From Escherichia coli (GTDB lineage: Bacteria; Pseudomonadota; Gammaproteobacteria; Enterobacterales; Enterobacteriaceae): a stretch of DNA of 205 bases. Both the position numbers and the translations under genes were made by a program. Within the stretch, counting starts at the first letter, position 1, and every line of letters begins with the position of its first letter. The notes below the pieces were generated by a model. It saw only the letters and a program-made list of their open reading frames with translations, was not told the origin of the DNA and did not search any database. The stretch is from NCBI RefSeq assembly GCF_003334335.1, contig NZ_QOWQ01000245.1; one strand, written 5' to 3'. Positions 1-205 of this stretch are shown in pieces.

Positions 1-205
1 GACCCGGGCGGACCGCCGGGGCCGAAAGGTGACACCGGCCCACGTGGAGAGGCCGGACCACCCGGACCACAGGGTCCCGCAGGCCCTCGGGGAGAAACCG
101 GCCCCGCAGGTCCTGCGGGTCCCGCAGGCAGTGTTCCGGATGCCAGCACATCACAGAAAGGTGTTGTACAGCTGAGCAGCGATACCAACAGCGATGATGA
201 AACAA
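1..205 (+). CDS. Internal fragment of a phage/prophage tail-fibre protein with a collagen-like stalk (Stf-like); partial at both ends
   Basis: Frame +1 (codons starting at nt 1) has no stop codon across the window and translates to [68 protein letters not shown]. The other two forward frames contain stops (TGA at 30-32 and 195-197 in frame 3; TGA at 173-175 in frame 2). The product is biologically coherent: a strict Gly-X-Y repeat followed by a KGxVQLSS-type motif that I recognise from phage side-tail-fibre proteins. No start or stop codon is present, so the gene boundaries lie outside the window. Recognition of the motif is from memory, not a database search. Confidence 0.8.
72..129. repeat. 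Exact 13-nt direct repeat gggtcccgcaggc (72-84 and 117-129), 45 nt apart and in frame; the core cccgcagg also occurs a third time at 103-110
   Basis: Direct string comparison: nt 72-84 and nt 117-129 are both gggtcccgcaggc. The 8-mer cccgcagg is found at 76-83, 103-110 and 121-128, encoding Pro-Ala-Gly each time. The 45-nt offset is a multiple of 9. Confidence 0.9.
103..119. repeat. Inverted repeat / near-perfect palindrome cccgcagg-t-cctgcggg (8-nt arms, 1-nt spacer)
   Basis: The reverse complement of nt 103-110 (cccgcagg) is cctgcggg, which is exactly nt 112-119. It arises from encoding Pro-Ala-Gly-Pro-Ala-Gly with alternating synonymous codons (ccc gca ggt cct gcg ggt). Its existence is certain; a functional role is not demonstrated. 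Confidence 0.85.
136..204 (+). other. Coding segment for a conserved phage tail-fibre motif immediately after the collagen-like stalk ([23 protein letters not shown])
   Basis: The translated segment fits the pattern ASTxxKGxVQLSSxTNSxxET, which I recall as the conserved motif of lambdoid side-tail-fibre (Stf-like) proteins, commonly ...ASTTxKGIVQLSSATNSTSET.... This window carries a variant with V for I and the acidic stretch DTNSDDE in place of ATNSTSE. G+C falls to about 49% over nt 131-205 by hand count. Confidence 0.65.

Follow-up and report, generated by a model that had tools for sequence, protein, structure and literature searches.

A collagen-like segment of an Escherichia coli prophage side-tail-fibre gene of the described EPclC type

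Results

The window is an internal piece of a side-tail-fibre gene

The stretch of DNA analysed here, a window of 205 bases with 67% G+C, is an internal piece of an E. coli prophage side-tail-fibre gene of a kind that has already been described. It codes for the last part of a collagen-like rod and for the beginning of a conserved joint motif; the putative receptor-binding tip is encoded elsewhere in the gene. We are highly confident that the gene belongs to a lambdoid prophage of the type that carries an immunoglobulin-binding autotransporter of the Eib family. Gene identity, domain architecture, genomic context, integrity of the open reading frame, allele structure and the pattern of conservation were observed directly. 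The features of the window and of the full-length product are listed in Table 1.

Six-frame reading revealed only two frames without a stop codon in the window, +1 and -3. Frame +1 is open over all 205 bases, corresponding to 68 codons plus one base. The 68-residue translation matched the two Pfam families expected by the original prediction, first the collagen triple-helix repeat (Collagen, PF01391; residues 4-43, i-E 2.1e-7) and then the phage tail-fibre repeat Phage_fiber_2 (PF03406, hereafter Pf2; residues 49-68, model positions 1-20 of 42, i-E 7.1e-6). This confirms the predicted fusion of a Gly-X-Y stalk to a conserved tail-fibre motif. In the full-length protein there are four Collagen matches, and the Pf2 unit is complete (model positions 1-42).

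As frame -3 is also free of stop codons in the window and a 361-residue minus-strand ORF (L003:5543..6628) spans the collagen-coding region, the real gene might be sought on the minus strand. This ORF is, however, confined to the collagen-coding part, whereas the plus-strand ORF continues into N-terminal, Pf2 and C-terminal domains that are not repetitive and have strong family matches. A comparable mirror ORF, orf206b, is found inside orf-401 of phage lambda. An open mirror frame is to be expected because coding DNA rich in GGN and CCN reads as Gly/Pro-rich on both strands, and we consider a minus-strand gene a practically negligible possibility. An Rfam search with both strands of the window gave three matches of 16-18 bits; these lie far under the gathering scores (46-70 bits) and were dismissed as chance.

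Table 1. Features of the 205-base window (nt, window positions) and of the 478-residue product of the complete gene (aa, residues).
Feature	Location	Strand	Basis or remark
Internal fragment of prophage side-tail-fibre CDS (stf-like, 'EPclC'-type)	nt 1..205	+	Codons 188-255 of the 478-codon ORF
One-residue break in collagen register	nt 1..21	+	Residues DPGGPPG plus the Gly just upstream (GDP-G-GPP)
Collagen domain 1, second part: 13 Gly-X-Y triplets plus GSV	nt 10..135	+	Pfam, run analysis
9-bp tandem repeat CCGGACCAC, two copies	nt 53..70	+	TRF; the P-EibA record has a 3-bp deletion there
Junction of in-frame 63-bp (7-triplet) deletion relative to the commoner 277-bp alleles	nt 72..73	+	Alignment with PhiR12_1 and P-EibA
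Junction of in-frame 9-bp difference (SVA-SVP in others, SVP only in the window)	nt 128..129	+	DNA alignment
Pf2 (PF03406) unit, first 20 of 42 positions	nt 145..204	+	Pfam; homologous units in Mu S and lambda Stf
phage_tail_N (PF08400)	aa 1-134		Pfam, E 2.1e-42; outside the window
Gly-X-Y run	aa 136-190		Run analysis
One-residue break, GDP-G-GPP	aa 190-191		Run analysis
Second Gly-X-Y run	aa 191-230		Run analysis
One complete Pf2 unit, then Ala/Glu/Lys-rich stretch	aa 236-277		E 7.8e-16
Gly-X-Y run (Col2)	aa 288-384		Run analysis
C-terminal segment (tip)	aa 386-478		No Pfam match

The collagen run and its break in register

Window residues 4-43 contain an unbroken series of 14 Gly residues at every third position, far longer than chance would give. 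The longest such run was 6 in 20,000 mononucleotide shuffles of the DNA, read in any of the six frames, and 8 in 20,000 shuffles of the peptide. Among the 13 triplets of the window, the X position is Pro in 10 and Glu or Asp in three, while the Y position is occupied by Ala (5), Thr (2), Arg (2), Pro (2), Lys (1) and Gln (1). These preferences fit the published profile of the prophage-encoded EPcl proteins (see below), where about half of the X positions are Pro, with Asp and Glu in addition, and Y is Lys/Arg, Ala, Gln or Thr (PMC3368898). The Gly-X-Y periodicity sits at the protein level and not in a tandem array of the DNA, the sole tandem repeat detected by TRF being a single 9-bp unit in two copies.

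The window opens with the end of one collagen run, which is followed by a break and then by a second run of 13 triplets. In the full-length protein, the two runs abut at G190-G191, and the Pfam Collagen matches are separated at the same place. A G-X-P-G-G-P-X-G break has been described in EPcl proteins with two Col domains (PMC3368898), and the first 21 bases of the window together with the upstream Gly encode exactly this motif. The register break, in the first seven residues of the window, had gone unmentioned in the original prediction.

The full-length gene is intact in the loci examined

In E. coli JE86-ST05, the window is part of an ORF of 478 codons (L001:14440-15876, WP_137466583.1) whose start codon is preceded by a Shine-Dalgarno-like GGGAGA. 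The family phrog_366 ('tail fiber protein') covers residues 1-469 of the product with an E-value of 3e-113. Its first 91 residues match the collar domain of Stf from Ur-lambda, as seen by cryo-EM (PDB 9e7m/9mgh, E 4e-29), and residues 1-135 are 51% identical to lambda orf-401. The remainder of the Pf2 unit (KAATPKAVKAVM...) and the Ala/Glu/Lys-rich stretch that follows it, AEVQAAKTKAEEAATRAAV, are encoded immediately beyond the end of the window.

Gly-X-Y repeats also occur in bacterial surface adhesins, which are exported and anchored and are not virion proteins. The NCBIfam profiles SclB, Lcl and SclA do match the protein (E 3e-39 to 4e-28), and the adjacent Eib gene codes for a genuine surface adhesin. 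The scores, however, are far under the curated cut-offs (135 versus 325, 102 versus 500 and 99 versus 400 bits) and the matches are confined to the Gly-X-Y regions. A signal peptide, an LPXTG motif and a hydrophobic segment were all searched for in the 478-residue protein and none was found, whereas the Eib-like neighbour has a clear signal peptide. Further, the N-terminus is a lambda Stf collar domain, and the gene lies between lom and a candidate fibre chaperone gene in a phage tail module. The protein thus lacks the features of a secreted or LPXTG-anchored collagen-like adhesin, and an adhesin of the Scl1/Scl2, Lcl or BclA type is a very improbable reading.

Several annotations would suit a decayed gene fragment in a cryptic prophage, without current function. 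The automatic annotation (PGAP) presents the gene as two 'incomplete' pseudo fragments in strains JE86-ST02 and SW070917, the upstream gpJ is annotated as frameshifted in UCPROB-002, and a few early-region genes of the JE86-ST05 prophage are pseudogenes. Nevertheless, each of the four loci examined has the 478-codon ORF without interruption, and neither a frame-1 stop codon nor a frameshift just outside the window was found in any of them. A mechanical ORF list contains the complete 478-residue ORF in both JE86-ST02 and SW070917. Over an alignment of 1.7 kb, JE86-ST02 shows no base difference from the copies that are annotated as intact, and within the gene SW070917 departs from them by point substitutions only. 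The pseudogene calls are therefore annotation artefacts of the low-complexity region; owing to such repeats PGAP sometimes splits an intact gene into false pseudogene fragments. The length variants compared at the sequence level are all in frame, a Shine-Dalgarno-like sequence is present, and near-identical genes (98% identity of the fibre proteins) are found in phages deposited as isolates with the laboratory hosts E. coli K-12 MG1655 or E. coli C. We thus regard decay of the fibre gene as improbable. The prophage copy of UCPROB-002 itself may be defective, or mis-assembled.

Prophage context and distribution

The prophage of JE86-ST05 is lambdoid, about 50 kb long and essentially complete. 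Upstream of the fibre gene lie V-, G-, T-, H-, M-, L-, K- and I-like tail genes, gpJ and a gene of the Ail/Lom family; farther upstream are the integrase, exonuclease, regulators, replication genes, Q, lysis genes, terminase, portal and capsid. The fibre ORF is followed after a gap of 16 bp by the gene for a 193-residue DUF4376 protein. Next come a 487-residue YadA-like trimeric autotransporter, a small hypothetical gene and the end of the prophage, which adjoins tRNA-Ser and the hya operon. The autotransporter is of the Eib type, as it matches the EibD structure 2xqh with an E-value of 3.9e-92 and is 53% identical to EibA. With J and lom upstream and prophage modules around it, the gene occupies the position expected by the original prediction, that of a side-tail-fibre gene in the late (tail) module of a lambdoid or enterobacterial prophage, and thus in mobile DNA.

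The predicted flanking genes were only partly recovered. Tail genes are present upstream, and a candidate fibre chaperone gene is present downstream, but the homology of the latter to lambda Tfa is missing: the DUF4376 protein showed no significant similarity to Tfa (BLASTP E 0.033). A sequence search of the PDB with this protein gave no match.

A 100% identical copy of the window DNA was found in five complete E. coli chromosomes, those of JE86-ST05 and JE86-ST02 from Japan, SW070917 from Galapagos wastewater, and UCPROB-001 and UCPROB-002 from Chile. A further 34 genomes contain the segment with 90-96% identity and with length differences. It thus occurs in 39 of 5,426 genomes, in every case chromosomally and covered by a CDS for a tail fibre; for the exact matches, the gene order is J, lom, stf, DUF4376, Eib-like. 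The prophage that carries this allele in SW070917 occupies another chromosomal site, near yciE/yciF, and the element is therefore mobile. The segment is also carried by nine phage records, P-EibA and eight PhiR5/PhiR12 phages, the latter with E. coli K-12 MG1655, E. coli C or ECOR strains as hosts. The window marks its genome of origin as one with an Eib-carrying lambdoid prophage.

Relation to known collagen-like and side tail fibres

Ghosh et al. (2012) catalogued 'EHEC prophage collagen-like proteins', EPclA to EPclD (PMC3368898). EPclC was defined by a PfN domain and two Col domains separated by Pf2, with a C-terminus unrelated to PfC and usually without PCoil; the first example listed is ORF-401 of P-EibA with 479 residues (PMC3368898). 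The protein studied here has the order PfN-Col-Pf2-Col, a C-terminus other than PfC and the G-G break, and is 81% identical to P-EibA ORF-401, which places it in this class. In P-EibA (E. coli ECOR-9, AF151091), the gene order J, lom, orf-401, orf-191A, eib(A) is the same, and ORF-401 shares the architecture including the G-G break and the lack of PCoil. The two proteins are almost equal in length (478 versus 479 residues), but in the window allele Col1 is short of seven triplets and of the SVA unit, and Col2 is longer (100 versus 76 residues). The view that this is a known architecture rather than a novel system is borne out by the EPclC class and by the near-identical relative in GenBank AF151091; the feature is already known.

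EPclA and EPclB of E. coli O157:H7 likewise combine PfN with collagen, and EPclB also has Pf2. They show the same X/Y preferences, the same G-X-P-G-G-P-X-G break and length variation in multiples of three residues, as published for EPcl proteins (PMC3368898). They differ in a PCoil region of about 110 residues and a PfC (PF06820) trimerisation C-terminus, neither of which was detected in the protein studied here. By analytical ultracentrifugation, CD and EM, EPclA is a trimer with a collagen CD signal that melts at 42 C and has the shape of a dumbbell, while EPclB consists of three globules, assigned to PfN, Pf2 and PfC, which are linked by two stalks (PMC3368898).

Lambda Stf (complete in Ur-lambda; split into orf-401 and orf-314 in lambda PaPa) has a homologous N-terminal collar domain (gpStfN residues 1-91, PF08400), is encoded at the same locus after J and lom, and is followed by a fibre-assembly gene, as in the prophage studied here, where the candidate is the DUF4376 gene. 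The proximal rod of lambda Stf is an Ala/Ser/Glu-rich coiled coil, in contrast to the collagen found here. Its distal part, which is similar to T4 gp37 and binds OmpC, and its chaperone Tfa (lambda orf-194) have no counterpart here, the DUF4376 protein being unlike Tfa. The fibre is therefore a relative of Stf that shares only the proximal half. Tail fibre protein S of phage Mu (gp49; PDB 5yvq/8ju3) has only the Pf2 unit in common with it. That protein is a fibre of a myovirus baseplate, without collagen, with another N-terminus and tip, and with a chaperone of the Tfa type. The collagen-like surface proteins Scl1/Scl2, Lcl and BclA share Gly-X-Y repeats without hydroxyproline, but they carry secretion and anchoring signals and are not virion parts.

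Proposed organization of the fibre

By analogy with these relatives we infer formation of a trimer with collagen triple helices, a joint role for Pf2, receptor binding by the tip and a chaperone function for the neighbouring gene product. The 478-residue protein would thus be expected to trimerise. Residues 1-91 would form the collar domain, which in lambda docks the fibre at the junction of tube and tip. The collar of Ur-lambda is built from twelve Stf N-terminal domains and sits at the gpV/gpM junction; four trimeric fibres emerge from it, each with a proximal rod (residues 102-393), a hinge (394-422) and an OmpC-binding distal part (PMC12617516). Here, a short helical stretch at about residues 100-135 would lead into a first triple-helical rod (residues 136-230), interrupted by a single G-G break in register. 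One Pf2 unit (residues 236-277) and the short Ala/Glu/Lys-rich stretch behind it would connect this rod to a second collagen rod (residues 288-384), which would end in a small tip (residues 386-478).

On this layout, three elements would come from the window: the 14 distal triplet positions of rod 1, its register break and the first half of the Pf2 unit. The window would cover the shaft and the entry to a 'knee', as a conserved spacer and joint. Because the Pf2 unit of lambda is at the boundary of rod and hinge and the middle globule of EPclB was assigned to Pf2, the window may encode the distal end of the proximal collagen rod, including the break, and the entrance to such a knee; in our judgement, the case for this assignment is evenly balanced. 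The joint role of Pf2 is proposed from its position, which is analogous to that in lambda, and from rotary-shadowing images of EPclB at low resolution. Literature searches on the structural role of PF03406 and on the PhiR12/PhiR5 phages gave no structure or function assigned to the Pf2 unit.

Conservation of the scaffold and variation of the tip

The original prediction regarded the window as a likely host-range determinant. A comparison by segments with P-EibA ORF-401 contradicts this. Identity is 99% for PfN, 97% for Col1, 100% for Pf2 with the following stretch and 78% for Col2, but drops to 23% in the tip. In the adjacent chaperone, the N-terminal 70 residues are 30% identical to the P-EibA counterpart, compared with 87% in the DUF4376 part. 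The variable unit is therefore one contiguous cassette, in which the 3' end of stf is joined to the 5' end of the neighbouring chaperone gene. The window is part of the conserved scaffold, to judge from the 97-100% identity of its shaft and joint between alleles that have such different tips. Specificity is probably determined by the C-terminal tip together with the N-terminal part of the chaperone, and receptor specificity, by analogy with other fibres, would most likely reside in the tip itself. For prediction or engineering of host range, one should hence look to the tip and the adjacent chaperone and not to the collagen/Pf2 scaffold. Lambda Stf speeds adsorption 10-30 fold and is dispensable for plaque formation (PMC12617516), and 'adsorption accessory' is for this reason a safer label for the fibre than 'host-range determinant'.

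The tip belongs to a small family. Among 1.84 billion cluster representatives, 14 relatives were found (E <= 0.001), eight of them near-identical; PG[ST]W and LFQR are motifs common to the family. The 93 C-terminal residues had no match in Pfam. An AlphaFold2 model of the tip, computed from an alignment of 9 sequences, has a mean pLDDT of 57, and a Foldseek search of the PDB with this low-confidence model gave no match with E <= 0.001. The DUF4376 protein is likely to be the fibre chaperone, by analogy with proteins of about 195 residues which have a C-terminal DUF4376 domain, are encoded directly downstream of the fibre gene and serve as fibre chaperones in the Alteromonas phages V22 and A5 (PMC7289586, PMC10579305). 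Since its N-terminal part varies together with the tip, it is probably the tip that this chaperone folds.

Length alleles and exchange of distal cassettes

Two in-frame deletions, of 63 bp and 9 bp, are the allele-specific traits of the window. Both segments are present in the fibre gene of PhiR12_1, whose product is 98% identical overall, and in that of P-EibA. On either side of the 63-bp segment is a copy of an imperfect direct repeat, CAGGGTCCGGCAGG and CAGGTCCCGCAGG. Allele spans of 205, 214, 269 and 277 bp were seen; the 205-, 214- and 277-bp alleles were compared at the sequence level, and all differences among these three are in frame. The 214-bp allele has the 63-bp deletion but retains SVA. 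With the window, this described family of collagen-like phage fibres gains a further length allele.

Larger rearrangements were found among database alleles. P0010 lacks the first Col run. In P0011 (287 residues), Col1 runs straight into the last part of Col2, so that both the window region and Pf2 are absent; the segment is therefore dispensable for the open reading frame and possibly for a functional fibre. PhiR5_2, a phage of 61.5 kb whose tail module lacks the lambda gene order, encodes a fibre of 653 residues with a divergent N-terminal domain (31% identity) and a longer proximal rod. Beginning at the window region, the sequence of this fibre hardly differs from that of the protein studied here. 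This pattern points to an exchange of the distal half between phage backbones, with breakpoints in or near the collagen-coding repeats. Such repeats would be sites of in-frame deletion and recombination, by which the length of the rod could be altered or distal cassettes swapped between phages.

As a tentative extension, the distal cassette, consisting of the end of Col2, the 93-residue tip and the N-terminal part of the DUF4376 protein, might be an uncharacterised pair of receptor-binding domain and chaperone, and the collagen-coding repeats, those of the window included, might be the in-frame recombination sites that move it between unrelated phage backbones and tune the length of the fibre. 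If this were true, the window would be part of a 'universal adaptor' for host-recognition modules, without itself being novel.

The Pf2 unit and its acidic motif

The Pf2 unit is shared with otherwise different fibres. Residues 232-277 match residues 109-154 of Mu protein S (PDB 5yvq/8ju3, E 2e-5), and the corresponding match in lambda Stf, ADTTRKGIVQLSSATNSTSETLAATPKAVKVVM, is at about residues 364-398. The motif in the window is more acidic than that of lambda Stf (SSATNSTSETL) or Mu S (TSATDSPSETL), and it had been proposed that this variant may mark a distinct allele. A tblastn search of phages with the Pf2 region returned nine near-identical records only, P-EibA ORF-401 (GenBank AF151091) and eight isolated phages. 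In all nine, the stretch of 24 residues to which the low-complexity filter had shortened the match is 100% identical. The form SDDETKAAT is also present in Salmonella and other fragments; a search of an index of 5.8 billion proteins with the short Pf2 query gave seven fragments only. Judged by these sequences, the acidic motif is a feature of the lineage and not of a new allele. With a more sensitive search, the Pf2-coding third of the window alone was found at about 80% identity in a further 100 genomes, in tail-fibre genes.

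Variation of the distal fibre and its chaperone

Phage PhiR5_2 encodes a fibre in which the window region, Pf2, Col2 and the tip are almost exactly as in the window-bearing fibre. The N-terminal domain is divergent (31%), and lambda gene order was not seen in the PhiR5_2 tail module. Judged from the sequence comparison, this fibre provides evidence that the distal cassette moves between phage types.

The fibre tip and the adjacent chaperone vary together. Between the alleles of JE86-ST05 and the P-EibA record, the tip is only 23% identical and the N-terminal 70 residues of the DUF4376 protein 30%, while the DUF4376 domain proper keeps 87% identity. 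Because it is the N-terminal 70 residues that differ along with the tip and the DUF4376 domain is 87% identical, the variable part of the chaperone is the N-terminal one, which is presumably fibre-specific. The arrangement is opposite in the Tfa proteins of lambda and Mu.

Features of the fibre gene and its surroundings
Feature	Coordinates	Remarks
653-aa fibre of phage PhiR5_2	L010:5018-6979	61.5-kb phage
stf 3' end and DUF4376 gene 5' end (JE86-ST05)	L001:15600-16100	compared with L005:2370-2870 (P-EibA)
9-bp x2 tandem repeat CCGGACCAC	window 53-70; L005:1821-1835	3-bp deletion inside, P-EibA record
Intact 478-codon fibre ORF (JE86-ST02)	L003:5440-6876	split by PGAP into two 'incomplete' pseudogene fragments
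Intact 478-codon fibre ORF (SW070917)	L002:11440-12876	split by PGAP into two 'incomplete' pseudogene fragments
Eib-type immunoglobulin-binding trimeric autotransporter (JE86-ST05)	L001:16833-18296	EibD 2xqh, E 4e-92
S6-family serine-protease autotransporter (EaaA-like, ~1,335 aa)	L002:16310-20317 and L005:5932-9939	SW070917 and P-EibA

Length variants, fusions and annotation of the fibre

Two database relatives are natural alleles from which large in-frame blocks have been lost via collagen-repeat recombination. In P0011 (287 aa), Col1 runs straight into the last part of Col2, with Pf2 and the entire window region missing; P0010 (426 aa) is devoid of the first Col run and of the G-G break. 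On a smaller scale, the 3-bp deletion within the tandem repeat of the P-EibA record costs the register one Gly (GPR-PQG): either the collagen run is truly interrupted a second time here, or the record contains a sequencing error.

Two further database proteins, P0013 and P0014, have the fibre tip domain joined to unrelated N-terminal sequence, which for P0014 comes from the beginning of the DUF4376 chaperone (~50 residues). These fusions probably arose as chimeras, through faulty assembly or gene calling on short contigs; alternatively, they could stem from a rearrangement where stf meets the chaperone gene.

The pseudogene calls by PGAP on the fibre ORF are probably an artefact from low-complexity collagen repeats in the protein-evidence alignment. 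DNA comparison showed the fibre gene of JE86-ST02 to be the same as copies carrying a normal CDS annotation.

Cargo at the prophage end

The cargo at the Eib-side end differs between prophages. All four examined loci with a 100% match carry the Eib-type autotransporter gene, separated from the chaperone gene upstream of it by ~360 bp. The autotransporter gene is absent from the prophage of S1-CAM-02-A, which carries the 214-bp allele. This prophage occupies the same tRNA-Ser/hya site, and its end comes directly behind the DUF4376 gene. The EaaA-like S6 autotransporter comes next after the Eib cassette in both SW070917 and P-EibA but is missing in JE86-ST05.
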